Made by a program: the position numbers and the translations under genes
In this document: positions 1 to 27,037 of the stretch, in pieces
Layout: each line of letters begins with the position of its first letter
Numbering within the stretch: position 1 is the first letter of the stretch
The notes under the pieces: model-generated
The model's input: only the letters and a program-made list of their open reading frames with translations
Told to the model about the DNA's origin: nothing
Databases searched by the model: none
IMG/VR virus record: IMGVR_UViG_3300022745_000021
Span: 40,960 to 104,959 of that record
Source of the DNA: a virus
Length of the DNA stretch: 64,000 bases
Strand: one strand, 5' to 3'

Positions 1-624
1 CGAGCTTGCATCGGACACGCGGGTATCGTGCGATGGGTGGCAGCCGGCCGGACCGGGCAGCGCGGCGTCGATGCGGGAAAGAATGTCCTTGAACGTCGAG
101 TAGGTCGCCCGAGAGCGCACCTCACCCGCCTCGACCCGCGCCACGAACCGACGCGCTGCCGCGATAAGATCGGCGGTGGCTTGCGCGTCGGGTTCGGGCA
201 CGGGGACTGGCGATGCAACAGGCAGCGCGGAGCCGGTGGGCTTGGCCCGCTGCTTGGCGCGGATCGCGTCGAGCTTGCCCCAGACGCGGGTCAGTTCGTG
301 GCTGGCGCAGGTGCGCATGTCGTAGGAGCGCGCGTTGCACAGCGCCGCCAGCGTGACCATGACGCCGCCGATCTCCTGCCCCGGCTCGCCGACCTCGCGG
401 GCGAACACGTAATCGACCAGCGCGTGAGCGCGTTCCTTGGTCCAGCCGGGGGTGGTCTGCGCCAGTTCCAGCGCTTCCTCGATAAACCGGTCGGCGCGCT
501 CGGTGACATCGCTGGCGATGGCGATGCCGAAACAGGCGATCGTCCAGTCCTGCACGGCGCGCTGGAACACGCCCAGTTCGAGGCGCATGGGATCGAAGGT
601 CATTACGTCGGTGTCAGGGGTCAC
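1..624 (-). CDS. MazG-like (all-alpha NTP pyrophosphatase-type) phage protein, 3' end runs off window
   Basis: Own translation from GTG at 624 (GTGA overlap with the upstream stop): FQRAVQDWTIACFG..ERADRFIEEALELAQ..GEPGQEIGGVMVTLAALC, with EE..EL and E.GG motifs. Absent from the ORF track because it is truncated. Confidence 0.6.
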   Translation of the reverse strand, partial: MTPDTDVMTFDPMRLELGVFQRAVQDWTIACFGIAIASDVTERADRFIEEALELAQTTPGWTKERAHALVDYVFAREVGEPGQEIGGVMVTLAALCNARSYDMRTCASHELTRVWGKLDAIRAKQRAKPTGSALPVASPVPVPEPDAQATADLIAAARRFVARVEAGEVRSRATYSTFKDILSRIDAALPGPAGCHPSHDTRVSDASS

Positions 625-20914: not shown

Positions 20915-21000
20915 GGTATGGTCTCCTCGTATCGGGCCGGGACTGCCTTCCCTGCCGATGACCTTTCATACCACGCCGGGGGTACGGTGCAAGCGAAAAG
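20915..21000 (-). promoter_or_regulatory. early expression module copy 10 (covariant hairpin)
   Basis: TTGCAC-CGTACCCCCGGCGTGG-TATGAA; GGGA AGGCAG TCCC (20939-20952), same loop with a compensatory closing pair. Confidence 0.75.
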
Positions 21001-21488: not shown

Positions 21489-21860
21489 TCAGTGCACGTC
21501 CTGACACATGATTGTCCGGGCACGGTGTCGCACATTGCTGAACGCATCGTCTAGTTGTTCGCGGGTCAGCCCCGACGACGACACGAAAACAACCGGGCGG
21601 GGCGGCGGGGTGATCCGCTTCTCGCATACCCATGCCAGCGCCAGCAGGGCGACGGCGACCGGCAGCAGCAGCGCGGCGAGCAGCCAGTCGTGATGCCCGA
21701 AGGCAAAGCCGGCGACGGCGCCGGTGACGAGCGTCAGCCCGCAAGCGACGCTGGTCAGTGCGGCGTAGCCCCGGTGGTAGTACTCGCCGGTGTGCTTGTC
21801 CTGCGCGTAGCCATTGACATAGGCGCGGGCTATAGGGATCAGGTAGTGTAGCGGCAACAT
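21489..21860 (-). CDS. membrane protein
   Basis: MLPLHYL start, GAGGAG SD, two hydrophobic segments. Confidence 0.6.
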   Translation of the reverse strand: MLPLHYLIPIARAYVNGYAQDKHTGEYYHRGYAALTSVACGLTLVTGAVAGFAFGHHDWLLAALLLPVAVALLALAWVCEKRITPPPRPVVFVSSSGLTREQLDDAFSNVRHRARTIMCQDVH

Positions 21861-21985
21861 GTGGGTGTCTCCTCGTCTCTGCCAAGAACACATGTAGCCT
21901 ACACATTAGCGGGCGTCAAGCGGCTTGGTTCCAGCCCGTGCTACGATTTTCCCGGCTCGCGCTTTACCGTTGCAACTGGTTGCAC

Positions 21986-22249
21986 CTATTCCGGCCTCGG
22001 CCCGGGGTCGCGGCGCTCCCCGCCCTGCCGGATCGTCTGTCCCGCCTCGGTCTGCGTGATGTGCGCCGCCCGGACGATGCGCGACTGGCGGATTGCGAAG
22101 ATCGTGCCGCACACCGCGTCGGCGACGTCCTTCGAGTTGTGGACGAACACGCCTGCGGCCAGCGCGAAGTTTTCAGTCCCCGGCACCGTCAGGTCGAACA
22201 CCGGAACGGGCTGCGAGGTAGTTATCCGCGTCACGCGAGTGCATTTCAT
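21986..22249 (-). CDS. terL: split intein C-fragment (38 aa) fused to TerL C-terminal extein (49 aa)
   Basis: MKCTRVTRITTSQPVPVFDLTVPGTENFALAAGVFVHN|SKDVADAVCG: intein block F (VFDLTV..TENF), block G (VHN), Ser+1; GGAGACC SD; ATGA overlap with the HNH gene stop. Confidence 0.9.
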   Translation of the reverse strand: MKCTRVTRITTSQPVPVFDLTVPGTENFALAAGVFVHNSKDVADAVCGTIFAIRQSRIVRAAHITQTEAGQTIRQGGERRDPGPRPE

Positions 22250-23055
22250 GGTAGGTCTCCCCCCTTGGCAGGAGCGTGTTTGCGTCGGCCGGGGTACGGA
22301 ACAGCCGCCTCCTCCCATACCCGTCGTGCGTGCTCGGCGGCTTCGGCCTCGTCATCGAAGTACCCCTTCGTCACCTTGCGGAAGATCACGCGCCATCGCC
22401 CTTGCGGCGCGAACCACGACACGCCGGTCCACTCGGACGACTTGACCGCTCGCCTCGTACACGTGTTGAAGTTGGGGATGACGAAGTCTTCGGGCAAGGG
22501 GTCGTCGGGGAAGTTAAGCTCCCGGCCCTGACCCGGGTAACGCGCCCGCGCCACGCGGTCGTAGACCTTGGCCGCGATGGTGATGTCTCGGTATTGCCCG
22601 TAGTGGACCGTGCCCACTGTCACGCGCCAGAACCCGGCTTCCTTGGCGGGCTTTACCCCGCGATAGCCGTGCGGCGGCGCGTCTCCCATGTAGCCACGGA
22701 TTGCCACGCGTGTCCTCCCGCAGTTGACGGCGTCCGGCAGGTGGCGAAGGTTTCGCCGCCGGCAGTCAAGTCGGTCGTGGTTTTCATGGTCAATATGCAT
22801 ACCCGGCGGTGCCCTGCCCGCGATCAGGCTGTGCAGCGATCGGTTTTCCGTGCGCTTGCAGCTGACCCGGCTGTGCCCCTGTCGGTGCCGGATGCTGTAC
22901 GCGTAGCCGTTGTTCAGGTGTAGCGCCAGCCCGTCCACCAAGGGCACGTCGGCATAGTCGATCTTGGCCCACACCCACGTGCCCTTGGGTCCGCGCACCG
23001 GAACCTCGACGTAGTCGGGCAAAAACCGAAAGGGCGGCCAGTCGATGTAGGTCAC
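22246..23055 (-). CDS. HNH homing endonuclease with AP2-like DNA-binding domains
   Basis: LHSLIAG..IDHENHDRLDCRRRNLR HNH motif; GYRGV..WRV..AAKVYD and WTGVSW..RWRV..GYFDDEAEAA AP2-like repeats; GAGGAG SD. Confidence 0.85.
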   Translation of the reverse strand: MTYIDWPPFRFLPDYVEVPVRGPKGTWVWAKIDYADVPLVDGLALHLNNGYAYSIRHRQGHSRVSCKRTENRSLHSLIAGRAPPGMHIDHENHDRLDCRRRNLRHLPDAVNCGRTRVAIRGYMGDAPPHGYRGVKPAKEAGFWRVTVGTVHYGQYRDITIAAKVYDRVARARYPGQGRELNFPDDPLPEDFVIPNFNTCTRRAVKSSEWTGVSWFAPQGRWRVIFRKVTKGYFDDEAEAAEHARRVWEEAAVPYPGRRKHAPAKGGDLP

Positions 23056-23096
23056 GGGTTGTTCTCCTCACCGACTATATCGTACCACCCCCCTAG

Positions 23097-25238
23097 TTAG
23101 TCAAGCCCTTGAATATCATCCGTTTCGCCCAAATGCTGCGCTTCCTTGTACGTGCCGTCCGTCAGCAGGAAGCGGTGGTCAGGCGTGCAACGGATTACCG
23201 CGCCGTTTTCCAGTTCGACCTCGACCAGATCGCAGGTGCGCATGGTCTCGCGCGGCTTGCAGCCGGTTGCAATCCGGGCCTCACCGTCAAACGTCACGAT
23301 CTCCACGTCGGCGCCGGTCGCTGCCAGTTCGTCGAACCGCACGTCCCTGCCATCAGCGAGGCGAACTAGCGTATCGCCCGTGAAGCAGCCGTTCGGCGGG
23401 TGATCGACCTTCTGTTTCTCGGTGTTCAGTTCCAGCTGGGTCAGTTCGACCTTGAGTTGTTCGCTGTCGAGCAGCGCCAGCCGGTCCTCGTACATCGACC
23501 GGCGAAATTCCTCGTACGGCTCGGTGGTGCGGTCCATGGACAGCGCCCACGACTTGATCCCGGTCTTGTTGATCGCCTGCCTGCTTTCCGCGCTCTGGAA
23601 GCCGTCGTAGGTGATCGCGTACAGGTTGAAGCCATAGTAGGTGGACAGCAGCATGACCCACCGGCGGACCTCGGCGATGTCCAGTTCGCGCTGCGGACTT
23701 GGCTTGATCGCGCAGGCCATGACGTTGGTGATGACCGGCGCGCGCTCGATCACCCCGTCGCGCAGCACGTTCTGCAAACCCTCCAGACGCGACACGGCGA
23801 CGCCGCAACAGTCGCCGGTGAGCGACAAGTCGATATGCGCGAAGTGGGGGCGCTGCTTGATGCTGGCGGGCAGGCTCTCCAGATATTGCCCCTGCCACTG
23901 CGGCATCCCCCGCGTCGCCAGTTCGGCGTAAGTGTCGGTGCAGTAGGGCCGCGTCTTGCGCTCGGTGCGGCGCTGGATCGCCTCGATGATCTTGTGGCGC
24001 TGGCCGATGAACGGGCTGATCGCGTCGGTGGCGACGCCGACGATGTCGCGCAGCGCGCCCTCGGGATCGACGATGAAGCGTTCGCGGTACTCGATCGGCA
24101 GCGTCTCGATCTTGGCGCGCTCGGGGTAGTCGATCCCCGGCATCATGCCATTCTCGATCACCTTGGTCCGGTACTCGTCCGTGCCCACGACGATCTGGAA
24201 CTTCTCGCCCGAGAAGCGGTCCTGCGGCACCACCTCGTACTGTTTGCGGCGCAGGCACAGGATGCCTTGCAGGTTGTGCTTCTTGACCTCGTCCATGCGC
24301 TGGTCGAGGAAGTCGGACTTGTAGCGGGTGGACGACAGGATGCACAGCACCCCCAAGGTGTAGCCCCGCGTCGTGAACGAACGGCCCTGACGACGGGCGA
24401 TGTTGTCGTAGACCTCGCGGGCCTGATCGAACTTGCCCCCGCCGCCGCGCGAACCCACGGCCTGCTTGGAGTTTTCGATGATCCGCATGAAGTTGACTTC
24501 GTCGAGCATCGACCCGGCGATGGCCTGACCAAGGATCGCCTCGATGTTGGCGAGCGCGGGCACGATGGTGACGCCCGAGTTGAAGATCAGTTCGGTCTCG
24601 CGCTGCTTGTCCCACGTCAGCCACCGCTGCACGAACGGCATCGACGTGAACATTTGCCGGAACGGGCGGTAGATGACGCGCCGGGTGATCGCCTGACTGA
24701 CGCTCTGGAACATGAACACGATCGGCGTGATCGCGGCGAGGTTGTACATCAGCTGCGGGGTGTTGAAGCACTCGAACAGGTAGGCTTGGTGCGCGATGGT
24801 GACGTAGCTCAAGGTCGTCTTGCCGGTGCCGGTCGCGCCGCCGAGCAACGCCTGCCGGACCGGTGCGGCGCCGGTGAAGACGTCGGGGTTCATCATGCGG
24901 ATGTCACGGCGCAGCGCGGGCCAGATTTCCTGAATGTTGCCAAGGAACTCGGGGCTTTCGCAGAACTCGTCGATGGTGACGGGCACGCGTTTCATGAAGG
25001 CGAGGTGGCGCAGCTTGTGCAGGTTGTCGCGTTCGCTGGCTTCCTCCAGCGCGTGGGCGTAGATTTTCGCCATGCGGCTGTGCGGACCGTGCAGGCCCTC
25101 GGCCTCGGACTGCAACCGCTCGGCCTCGTTGAGCAGGACATGGCGGACGCGTTCCCGGCGCTCGTTGCGCACGTCCTCGATCCGCGAGCGCAGGCGCGGG
25201 GCGACTTGGCTGTCGGGGTAGCGGGCAGCGTCGGTCAT
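23097..25238 (-). CDS. terL: terminase large subunit N-terminal part fused to split intein N-fragment (96 aa, 23387-23100)
   Basis: Walker A GGATGTGKT, Walker B MLDEVNF, RNase-H HIDLSLTGD, ITYDGFQS, KVDHPPNG, then CFTGDTLV..IRCTPDHRFL (intein blocks A/B) and stop. Confidence 0.88.
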   Translation of the reverse strand: MTDAARYPDSQVAPRLRSRIEDVRNERRERVRHVLLNEAERLQSEAEGLHGPHSRMAKIYAHALEEASERDNLHKLRHLAFMKRVPVTIDEFCESPEFLGNIQEIWPALRRDIRMMNPDVFTGAAPVRQALLGGATGTGKTTLSYVTIAHQAYLFECFNTPQLMYNLAAITPIVFMFQSVSQAITRRVIYRPFRQMFTSMPFVQRWLTWDKQRETELIFNSGVTIVPALANIEAILGQAIAGSMLDEVNFMRIIENSKQAVGSRGGGGKFDQAREVYDNIARRQGRSFTTRGYTLGVLCILSSTRYKSDFLDQRMDEVKKHNLQGILCLRRKQYEVVPQDRFSGEKFQIVVGTDEYRTKVIENGMMPGIDYPERAKIETLPIEYRERFIVDPEGALRDIVGVATDAISPFIGQRHKIIEAIQRRTERKTRPYCTDTYAELATRGMPQWQGQYLESLPASIKQRPHFAHIDLSLTGDCCGVAVSRLEGLQNVLRDGVIERAPVITNVMACAIKPSPQRELDIAEVRRWVMLLSTYYGFNLYAITYDGFQSAESRQAINKTGIKSWALSMDRTTEPYEEFRRSMYEDRLALLDSEQLKVELTQLELNTEKQKVDHPPNGCFTGDTLVRLADGRDVRFDELAATGADVEIVTFDGEARIATGCKPRETMRTCDLVEVELENGAVIRCTPDHRFLLTDGTYKEAQHLGETDDIQGLD

Positions 25239-26143
25239 GCGCGCGTCCTCACCCGTGCCGGCGGCAAGCCGGGGCCATCGTCGATCCGGGTATCCCAGCC
25301 GCCCGCGCTGTCCTCGGTGTCCGCGAAATCGTCGCCGTCGGGGTCAAGCGTGTCACCCGGCTCCGGTTCGGCCGGGATGCCGCCGGTGTCGCCCAGCGAC
25401 CGTGCCGCCGGGTCCTGCCAGCCGCCCCCTGCCCCGTCACCGCCCGGGCCGCCGCCGGGATCGCCGGGGATGTCGATGGCGTCCTCGTCGCCGATGTCGT
25501 CGATCGGGCCGTGCGCGGCGTCCACCAGCGCGTCGATGACGCCGTTGATCGCCCCGGACAGCGCGCGGACGGCGGTCACGCTCTCGTCCTCGTTGCTGGC
25601 TTGCAGCGACACGCCCCGGAAGCCGCCGACCTTCTCGATGAACTCGAACTCGTTGCGCATGACGGTCATAAGGCTGTCGCGGGCGCGGTGCTTGTCCACC
25701 TCGGACGAGCCGCCGCGCTGGAGCGCGAAGAACGCGCTTTCGCGGAGCGAGCGGAACATTTGCACGTGCTCGGCGATGACCCCCATCCCGTCGAAGCGGG
25801 TGACGGCGGCCTCGCGCATTTCCTTGCGCGCCTCGGTCAGCAGGGCGCGGGTCCACGTCAGGCCGAACTGGAAGGTCTTGGCGATGTCCTCGTCGCGCAC
25901 CCCGGCCATCGCCATGCGCAGCATTTGCTGTTTGGCGTAGACGCGTGCGGACGAACCACCCTCGACCGCCTTGATCTGGCGGTAGCGCACGGCGGGTTCG
26001 GCCGAGAGGCTATCGCCGTAGATGAACGTCCCCTCGGCGGTGGGTGCCGGTTCAGGCTGCGCGGCAGCGACGTTGTCGTCCACGGCGATCACCCGCCGGG
26101 TGCGGGGCCGGGCCGGCGGGAGGGGTCGAGGTGCCTGCGCCAT
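25235..26143 (-). CDS. probable terminase small subunit (HTH-like region, acidic Gly-rich tail)
   Basis: Directly upstream of and coupled to terL; GVRDEDIAKTFQ HTH-like segment. Confidence 0.5.
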   Translation of the reverse strand: MAQAPRPLPPARPRTRRVIAVDDNVAAAQPEPAPTAEGTFIYGDSLSAEPAVRYRQIKAVEGGSSARVYAKQQMLRMAMAGVRDEDIAKTFQFGLTWTRALLTEARKEMREAAVTRFDGMGVIAEHVQMFRSLRESAFFALQRGGSSEVDKHRARDSLMTVMRNEFEFIEKVGGFRGVSLQASNEDESVTAVRALSGAINGVIDALVDAAHGPIDDIGDEDAIDIPGDPGGGPGGDGAGGGWQDPAARSLGDTGGIPAEPEPGDTLDPDGDDFADTEDSAGGWDTRIDDGPGLPPARVRTRA

Positions 26144-26305
26144 GGGTCAATCCCATGCGAACGGGGGAAGATAGATCACGGGCGCGCTCCCTCATACCCC
26201 TTGACGGGGATTGGCTGGACCCTACACATGTAGGGAGGCCGTTAGGGAAGTGCAACGCCGTAACTCGCTGCAACCAGTTGCAACCGGCGGGAACGCGCCG
26301 GAAAA

Positions 26306-26647
26306 TCAGGCGAGGATTTTGCCCGGCGCGGTCTGGCCCGACGTGCGCACGGTCGTGCCCCGGGCGCGCAGTTCGTCGGCGACGCGCTGGATCGTGGAGA
26401 TACCCACGCCGTACTTGTCGCGCAGCTTGGCGTACGACAGCCCGCCCTTGGTCAGGTCAGCGGCGATGGCCGCGCGGGTGTCGTCGGGGACGGTCGGCTG
26501 GCCGTACTTGGCCGCGCGTTCCTTCCAGAAGGCATCGGCGATCTGCGAGGCGAGGGCATGGGCGTCTTCGGGCGAGTGCACGCCGAGCAGGCCGTTATAG
26601 ACCGCGTCCCATACTTCCTGTCGGATGATCGTCTGCTTTGCCACCAT
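26306..26647 (-). CDS. HTH DNA-binding protein
   Basis: LSYAKLRDKYGVGISTIQRV helix-turn-helix; own TTGACA promoter near 26700. Confidence 0.65.
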   Translation of the reverse strand: MVAKQTIIRQEVWDAVYNGLLGVHSPEDAHALASQIADAFWKERAAKYGQPTVPDDTRAAIAADLTKGGLSYAKLRDKYGVGISTIQRVADELRARGTTVRTSGQTAPGKILA

Positions 26648-26957: not shown

Positions 26958-27037
26958 GGGTGGTCTCCTTGTTTGCCGGGCCTGCCTGCCCTGCCCCATG
27001 ACCATACCGGTTTGGCGGTACGGTGCAAGCGAAAAAA
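26958..27037 (-). promoter_or_regulatory. early expression module copy 11
   Basis: TTGCAC-CGTACCGCCAAACCGG-TATGGT; GGGC AGGCAG GCCC; SD AGGAGACC. Confidence 0.75.

Follow-up and report, generated by a model that had tools for sequence, protein, structure and literature searches.

Can the enzyme that packages a phage genome be encoded in two genes and become complete only once its pieces have been joined as proteins? The question is raised by a locus (positions 21986-25238, minus strand) in a 64,000-nucleotide stretch of DNA, hereafter the window, which is the 3' 64 kb of the 104,959-bp IMG/VR virus record IMGVR_UViG_3300022745_000021. The record stems from an uncultured phage and its completeness was judged to be 96%; the G+C content of the window is approximately 66%, and nearly all of its genes lie on the minus strand. 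At this locus the gene for the large terminase subunit (TerL) is interrupted by an N-terminal (IntN) and a C-terminal (IntC) intein part, which are separated by a free-standing endonuclease gene. On the sequence evidence set out below, we consider it very probable that the locus represents a genuine canonical class-1 split intein (Cys1/Ser+1; 96 and 38 amino acids (aa)) in a fractured TerL gene.

Anatomy of the interrupted terminase gene

The locus consists of three open reading frames (ORFs) on the minus strand, each in a different frame and each preceded by its own Shine-Dalgarno (SD) sequence. The first ORF (23097-25238, 713 aa), the ATG of which overlaps the stop codon of the upstream gene (ATGA), runs from a Walker A motif to KVDHPPNG, continues as CFTGDTLVRLADG...IRCTPDHRFL...IRCTPDHRFLLTDGTYKEAQHLGETDDIQGLD and ends in ...DDIQGLD, followed by a TAA stop codon (23097..23099). 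It comprises the 617-aa TerL N-extein (23388..25238), which contains the ATPase and most of the RNase-H-like nuclease and ends in ...KVDHPPNG, and the 96-aa IntN (23100..23387), which opens with Cys1 (CFTGDT), carries the block B motif CTPDH and closes with the acidic tail ...GETDDIQGLD. A spacer of 41 nucleotides (nt; 23056..23096) holding the SD of the endonuclease gene leads to this gene itself (22246..23055; 810 bp, 269 aa, HNH_3 family), which starts with GTG behind GAGGAGAA. The third ORF (21986-22249, 87 aa), the ATG of which overlaps the TGA of the endonuclease gene (again ATGA), reads MKCTRVTRITTSQPVPVFDLTVPGTENFALAAGVFVHN and then SKDVADAVCG...; it encodes the 38-aa IntC (22136..22249; MKCTRVTRIT..., block F VFDLTV, block G VFVHN) and the TerL C-extein (21986..22135; 49 aa plus stop), which begins with Ser+1 and was delimited by alignment with intein-free TerL. 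The coordinates and peptides given in the original prediction, which had been made from the sequence alone, including the 96-aa IntN, the 810-bp gene and the 38-aa IntC, are all present exactly.

Both parts carry the residues of intein splicing blocks. The block A nucleophile Cys1 (CFTGDT) follows directly after DHPPNG, the block B T-x-x-H is present (IRCTPDHRFL), and blocks F and G, with the block F Asp and the terminal His-Asn, are found in VFDLTVPGTENFALAAGVFVHN, which is followed by the Ser at position +1. In line with the earlier reading of the two pieces as intein halves, the Pfam profile Intein_splicing matched IntN at profile positions 11-92 and IntC at positions 121-155 (of 155), i.e. 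in complementary parts, with E-values of 1e-4 and 1e-5, respectively. IntN also matched the solved Ssp DnaE intein (E = 1.2e-5; ...VIRATSDHRFL aligned to ...VIRCTPDHRFL) and IntC matched solved DnaB mini-inteins (VFDLTVPG..NF...VHN), and residues 590-713 of the query (28 extein residues plus IntN) showed 48-61% identity to TerL inteins of other contigs and, more broadly, 40-61% identity to proteins with a precomputed assignment to Pfam PF14890 and to contiguous inteins at this site. IntN and IntC were also placed as fragments in an alignment of mini-inteins that occupy this TerL site in contiguous form (P0009, L030 and P0014); there, the end of IntN and the start of IntC met at the 2-4-residue linker of these mini-inteins (P0009, ...LTPEHDLKSL-VE-MKIKSVRRIK...; window, ...LGETDDIQGL-D-stop / MKCTRVTRIT...). 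The charge pattern that had been noted for the two halves was also found: the net charge of IntN is -11, with -5 in its last 30 aa, and that of the first 15 aa of IntC is +3.

The interrupted gene had been taken for TerL, and several lines of evidence agree with this. The N-extein contains the Walker A motif GGATGTGKT, and a tblastn search with it gave matches in 345 phage records, the best of which are annotated large terminases of the Rhizobium phages L338C, RHph_I4 and P11VFA (44% identity) and of Vibrio phages. The closest TerL homologues, P0079 and P0080, are 78% identical, 662 aa long and intein-free, with the identity of P0080 spanning residues 60-617. Because a phmmer search of the N-extein against the PDB returned only AAA+ Walker-A noise, TerL was checked by fold. 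For this, the intein-free P0080 was modelled with AF2 from a 66-sequence alignment (A2; mean pLDDT 89.2), and the top Foldseek matches of the model were the large terminases of D6E, HK97, Sf6 (gp2) and T4 (gp17), with E-values down to 3.5e-14, together with isolated ATPase and nuclease domains (nuclease: G20c and P74-26). As judged from this model, the interrupted gene is a TerL with an ATPase and an RNase-H-like nuclease fold. The genome contains a single TerL gene. Related TerL proteins in Rhodospirillales, Paracoccus, Roseomonas and Reyranella assemblies and in Rhizobium phages suggest that the host is probably an alphaproteobacterium.

The position of the intein within the nuclease can be given precisely. 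Residues of the nuclease half that do not vary in alignment A2 are H463, D465, D471, D541, E594, H609, D616 and D619 (P0080 numbering, also below), and the intein lies between G613 and S614, after the strand 606-608 and before the helix 616-630. Two of the invariant aspartates, D616 and D619 in the last nuclease helix, are therefore encoded in the C-extein. The joined exteins aligned without gaps to the terminases of L338C and HJ05 (VDHPP[NRK]G-SKD[VI]AD), so that joining them restores the DHPPNG-SKDVADA motif of TerL, as had been proposed. Since TerL is encoded as two genes with split-intein halves, its nuclease site would have to be rebuilt post-translationally.

Split and contiguous alleles at one terminase site

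Relatives of the locus were obtained from a junction-region search of a 5.8-billion-protein collection and by scanning IMG/VR with a degenerate DNA pattern for DHPxxGCFxG[DE]T; locus searches of IMG/VR with the 713-aa protein and with P0080 yielded no confirmed relative. The protein relatives fall into contiguous TerL inteins (of which many carry HNH_3 as an in-frame domain), mini-inteins that are likewise contiguous, and split TerL N-halves. The latter (P0005, P0006, P0007, P0012, P0023 and P0025; 650-960 aa) end in an IntN with the same acidic tail. IMG/VR contains 72 loci with an intein at this TerL site; in the majority it is contiguous and has an in-frame HNH, and 8 loci are split (6 distinct IntN sequences). 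Among the 88 sequences classified (IMG/VR loci and proteins), 52 are full-length, 16 mini and 14 split, five are truncated by a contig end and one is frame-broken (L075, which resembles a full-length intein with a broken frame). The window intein is thus one of about a dozen split alleles that stand alongside mini and full alleles at one site. The contiguous inteins (DHPxxG/C...HN/SKD) occupy the same insertion point and are allelic to it, but they are single polypeptides, either mini or with an in-frame HNH_3, whereas the window intein is split. One metagenomic contiguous TerL, P0002 (1109 aa), contains two inteins, one in the ATPase region (...SDPEG/CFTGET) and one at the DHPxxG/SKD site, both with in-frame HNH-like inserts.

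Stand-alone homologues of the 87-aa ORF numbered 14 (68-132 aa). In 13 of them the IntC start column is as in the window ORF, in 11 cases as M[RK][VI], while P0068 is N-terminally truncated. All 15 IntC ORFs, including that of the window, keep P16, V17, D19, N27, F28, H37, N38, S39, K40 and D41. A maximum-likelihood tree computed for the N-terminal splicing parts placed every one of the 12 distinct split copies on one side, together with three mini-inteins and apart from all HNH-bearing contiguous inteins, and the nearest relatives of the window intein were the split copies P0006 and P0005.

The recurrence of this architecture bears on whether the locus might instead be a decaying or mis-assembled gene, i.e. 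a frameshift-broken intein in a defective phage or a chimeric contig without a functional terminase. That the record is a metagenome assembly, and that the related locus L075 looks frame-broken, would fit this explanation. The window, however, holds three clean ORFs, each behind an SD, and as these lie in three frames they could not be fused by one sequencing error. Its endonuclease ORF is complete and without BLASTP kinship to the in-frame HNH of the contiguous alleles, which argues against a broken intein domain. Independent metagenomes contain this architecture as well, with a conserved IntC start, and the single TerL gene lies in a genome judged 96% complete. The three frames, the complete foreign gene and the recurrence elsewhere mean that a single assembly error cannot explain the locus, and we regard decay or mis-assembly as very improbable.

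The stretch between the two halves differs among the split alleles. In L038 and L044, which come from independent metagenomes and form a sister lineage to the window phage, it encodes a 238-aa HNH_3 protein, and that of L038 is homologous to the window endonuclease over its full length (27% identity, E = 5e-16). The gap of L015 (L015:2475-2957, plus strand) encodes a 161-aa protein that matched PHROG 3377 'HNH endonuclease' (E = 3e-52) and gave no Pfam HNH_3 match; the different type of this enzyme implies that endonuclease genes are exchanged at this position over time. The gap of L025 measures 138 nt and contains no gene. In the complete 100-kb phage G002 (G002:C1, IMGVR_UViG_3300001765_000001, 100,142 bp) the halves (L093:440-3328 and L093:9064-9336, plus strand) are separated by 5.7 kb that contain about ten small ORFs; the TerL-N-IntN protein is 962 aa and the product of the IntC-C-extein gene 90 aa long, an arrangement that is dispersed and not a simple endonuclease insertion.

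These gaps also bear on the idea that the intervening segment is removed at the level of RNA or translation, as a group I or II intron with an HNH ORF or by ribosomal bypass, which would leave a contiguous cis-splicing mini-intein. Phage group I introns often carry HNH ORFs, and the contiguous mini-intein P0009 also has a Met aligned with the IntC start. Neither the gap of L025, short and without an ORF, nor that of G002, with its many genes, is intron-like. Across loci the IntC ORFs have a conserved Met start, which in the window is preceded by its own SD, and no Rfam family was found at E <= 1 in 21800-23600, and thus no group I or II intron was detected in this interval. We find removal before or during translation scarcely credible.

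The split alleles of the sister lineage are under purifying selection: between L038 and L044, the ratio of non-synonymous to synonymous substitution rates (dN/dS) was 0.125 for IntN, 0.126 for the endonuclease, 0.05 for IntC and about 0.03 for the exteins. The dS values of this pair were about 1.5 in the N-extein compared to 0.3-0.6 from IntN through the HNH gene and IntC to the C-extein (small counts), a contrast that hints that the cassette was transferred laterally not long ago and that the extein downstream was co-converted with it.

Several points weigh against a functional split intein in the window. Each half scored below the Pfam gathering threshold (22.5 and 25.6 vs 35.8 bits), IntC is weakly basic overall (net +1), the dN/dS values come from the L038/L044 lineage and not from the window phage's own copy, and the branch that holds the split clade is weak (69/91), being compatible with a single origin of splitting without demonstrating it. 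To these are added the metagenomic assembly mentioned above and the fact that splicing is argued from sequence. The last point leaves room for the intein halves to act as a non-covalent dimerisation module that holds TerL-N and TerL-C together as a two-chain enzyme without ligation, and phage enzymes that assemble from fragments without splicing are documented (the intein-less split NrdA of Aeh1, cited in PMC2677866; see also PMC3045599). If binding sufficed, residues required only for the chemistry could drift; Cys1, the block B T..H, the terminal His-Asn and Ser+1 are nevertheless kept in every examined split copy, and the IntC value of 0.05 in L038/L044 likewise speaks against dimerisation alone, which we judge improbable. 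A split intein capable of trans-splicing is thus the reading that we prefer.

The free-standing endonuclease and known fractured genes

The 269-aa protein encoded between the two halves matched Pfam HNH_3 with 29.8 bits (curated cut-off 24.8) and PHROG 99, and its gene is present in one copy in the phage genome. An exhaustive phmmer search with this protein gave 5037 representatives at E <= 1e-3, and D89, H90 and N102 are invariant among 54 aligned full-length homologues. Pfam AP2 was found in 38 of these 54 homologues, while its match to the 269-aa protein itself was not significant. In an AF2 model (pLDDT 88.7) an HNH core is followed by two three-strand-plus-helix units, and the best structural matches were WRINKLED1 (a double AP2 on DNA; probability 0.98), I-HmuI, TEM1 AP2 and AtERF1, all with weak Foldseek E-values (0.016-0.6); AtERF1 was superimposed on a model unit with a TMt of 0.70 and an rmsd of 1.8 Å over 60 columns. 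The label HNH-AP2 that had been given to the protein is therefore reasonable: its HNH part holds by direct profile match, whereas the AP2 part lacks a Pfam match of its own and would follow from the family and the predicted fold. HNH-AP2 homing endonucleases of phages, cyanobacteria and ciliates were reportedly described by Magnani et al. and Wuitschick et al. in 2004. In these, an HNH_3 nuclease is followed by AP2-type DNA-binding repeats, an order that the predicted fold of the window protein also suggests; in contrast to them, the putative repeats of the window protein are too diverged for Pfam on the single sequence and the place of its gene between split-intein halves is unusual. A BLASTP comparison with the in-frame HNH of the contiguous allele P0002 revealed no similarity, which argues that the endonuclease gene is an invader and not a detached intein domain. 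The possibility that the free-standing HNH gene descends from the in-frame domain of contiguous alleles was accordingly rejected at the BLASTP level.

Genes of this organization are known. Dassa et al. 2009 (PMC2677866) defined fractured genes, in which the endonuclease genes are GIY-YIG or Vsr-like; the only terminase among their cases had an atypical split, its C-part being 122 aa long, and the authors remarked that HNH enzymes, too, could in principle cause such fractures. In agreement with the layout proposed in the original prediction (gp41-1/NrdJ-1/IMPDH-1), the window locus shares with these fractured genes (gp41-1..8, NrdJ-1, IMPDH-1, NrdA-2; PMC2677866) the order N-extein-IntN, endonuclease gene (here the HNH_3 ORF), IntC-C-extein on one strand, a split between blocks B and F, where endonucleases are canonically inserted, the sizes of IntN (88-105 aa; 96 aa in the window) and IntC (33-54 aa; 38 aa), an acidic IntN and a basic IntC start, and a phage or metagenome origin. 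Unlike in the set of Dassa et al., the host protein is a siphovirus-type TerL and the gap endonuclease is of the HNH_3/AP2 type instead of GIY-YIG or Vsr-like, although the latter is a descriptive feature and not a requirement of the layout. Moreover, the sequence of the window intein is distant from those of gp41-1 and NrdJ-1 (NrdJ-1, E = 0.1).

The TerL split inteins known so far, AceL-TerL (25-aa IntN) and GOS-TerL (37-aa IntN, Ser1/Cys+1), are atypically split (PMC11766414), as had been stated when the locus was first noticed. Like the window intein, these two and the Lake Gatun intein of a gp17-like terminase are naturally split and reside in phage large terminases. The three have IntN parts of 25-37 aa, IntC parts of 104-122 aa, Cys+1 and gp17-like myovirus host terminases, whereas the window intein shows a canonical 96/38 split and Ser+1 and lies, in another TerL family, at the last motif of the nuclease. 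For an HNH gene between split-intein halves there is a precedent in PolB of phage MIJ3, where an ORF of the HNH family separates the halves of a putative split intein (PMC6892783); that intein, which is characterised by its motif blocks, lies in a different host gene, has Ser1 and is unrelated to the window intein. A 2025 survey of actinophage inteins described a single split intein, which resides in a nucleotidyltransferase, as well as endonucleases that are out of frame. We found no report of a canonically split TerL intein in searches of the full-text literature, the coverage of which is incomplete. The TerL split-intein family therefore appears to be undescribed, though its layout is known; what is new here is a different host protein family and endonuclease type within the known kind of fractured genes.

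An unannotated terminase in at least three pieces was also observed in the cultured Streptococcus phage vB_SagM-GXN1 (PQ819873.1, at about 122.5-125.5 kb; L094:2336-5306). One of its terminase ORFs opens with an IntC (...VVSHN/CALMDEIEF, at the Walker-B site) and later carries, at DHPPNS/CLVEDT..., an IntN fused in frame to a Vsr/DUF559-like stretch, and a separate, overlapping ORF consists of an IntC and a C-extein (...LVVHN/SKDISD) at the site of the window intein. The phage could serve for tests in culture, unless its breaks are frameshifts introduced by sequencing.

Expression signals were also considered. The SD of the IntC ORF, GGAGACC (22254..22260), lies 4 nt ahead of its ATG, in line with the earlier proposal of a separate IntC ORF with its own SD starting at 22249; a longer 110-aa reading of this ORF (ATG 22318) was dropped for the ATG at 22249 based on the family alignment and the SD. 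This heptamer occurs 27 times in the window, where 11.4 occurrences would be expected, and in 26 cases it lies on the coding (minus) strand (e.g. 22254-22260, 20920-20926 and 26962-26968); it serves as the phage's preferred extended SD, which the IntC ORF also uses. Neither a hairpin over the SD and start of the HNH gene (fold z = -1.19) nor one masking the SD of the IntC gene (z = +0.46) was better than in shuffled sequences. No sigma-70-like promoter was found in 21700-26400, and terminator-like sites in this interval were not above shuffles; given that no promoter-like site and no excess of terminators lie across the three genes, they are probably co-transcribed. A megablast search of the locus against cultured phages gave no match. 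The neighbouring ORF (25235-26143, minus strand; 302 aa), which is ATGA-coupled to the TerL start, has an acidic, Gly/Asp-rich C-terminus and no PHROG match; by its position it is a candidate for the small terminase.

Proposed mechanism and meaning for phage biology

We propose that the three genes are co-transcribed in a late operon and translated separately into TerL-N-IntN (713 aa), the HNH_3/AP2 homing endonuclease (269 aa) and IntC-TerL-C (87 aa). Association of IntN, which is acidic, with IntC, whose N-terminus is basic, would then give a HINT fold, and splicing would proceed by an N-S acyl shift at Cys1, transesterification to Ser+1 and cyclisation of Asn38. Ligation of ...VDHPPNG to SKDVADAV... 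would yield a TerL of about 666 aa, the nuclease of which would regain its last helix with the two invariant aspartates, and packaging would then depend on splicing. The endonuclease gene would be a selfish passenger; in related phages its product would probably cut the TerL allele that lacks the interruption and so spread the cassette by homing.

A more far-reaching view would be that the split intein and the HNH/AP2 gene move together as a single composite cassette, by homing between phages that are only distantly related, that splicing acts after translation as a timer or checkpoint when the genome is cut and packaged, and that the family consists of fast, orthogonal Cys1/Ser+1 split inteins. 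A timer or checkpoint is conceivable because the last catalytic helix of the packaging nuclease would exist only after trans-splicing, but as a whole we hold this view to be speculative and rather unlikely.

Few inteins are split in nature, and those that are split are prized for the ligation and labelling of proteins and for the delivery of split genes; the best of them (gp41-1, NrdJ-1 and IMPDH-1) derive from fractured phage genes of this type. The locus and its roughly one dozen relatives make up a diverse canonically split Cys1/Ser+1 family, the variation of which may be mined for speed and orthogonality. At one TerL site there are full-length forms with an in-frame HNH, mini forms, split forms with and without an endonuclease gene and a form with its halves 5.7 kb apart, a near-complete series for testing how split inteins arise. 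For the biology of the phage, the locus suggests that an essential packaging nuclease would be completed only post-translationally.

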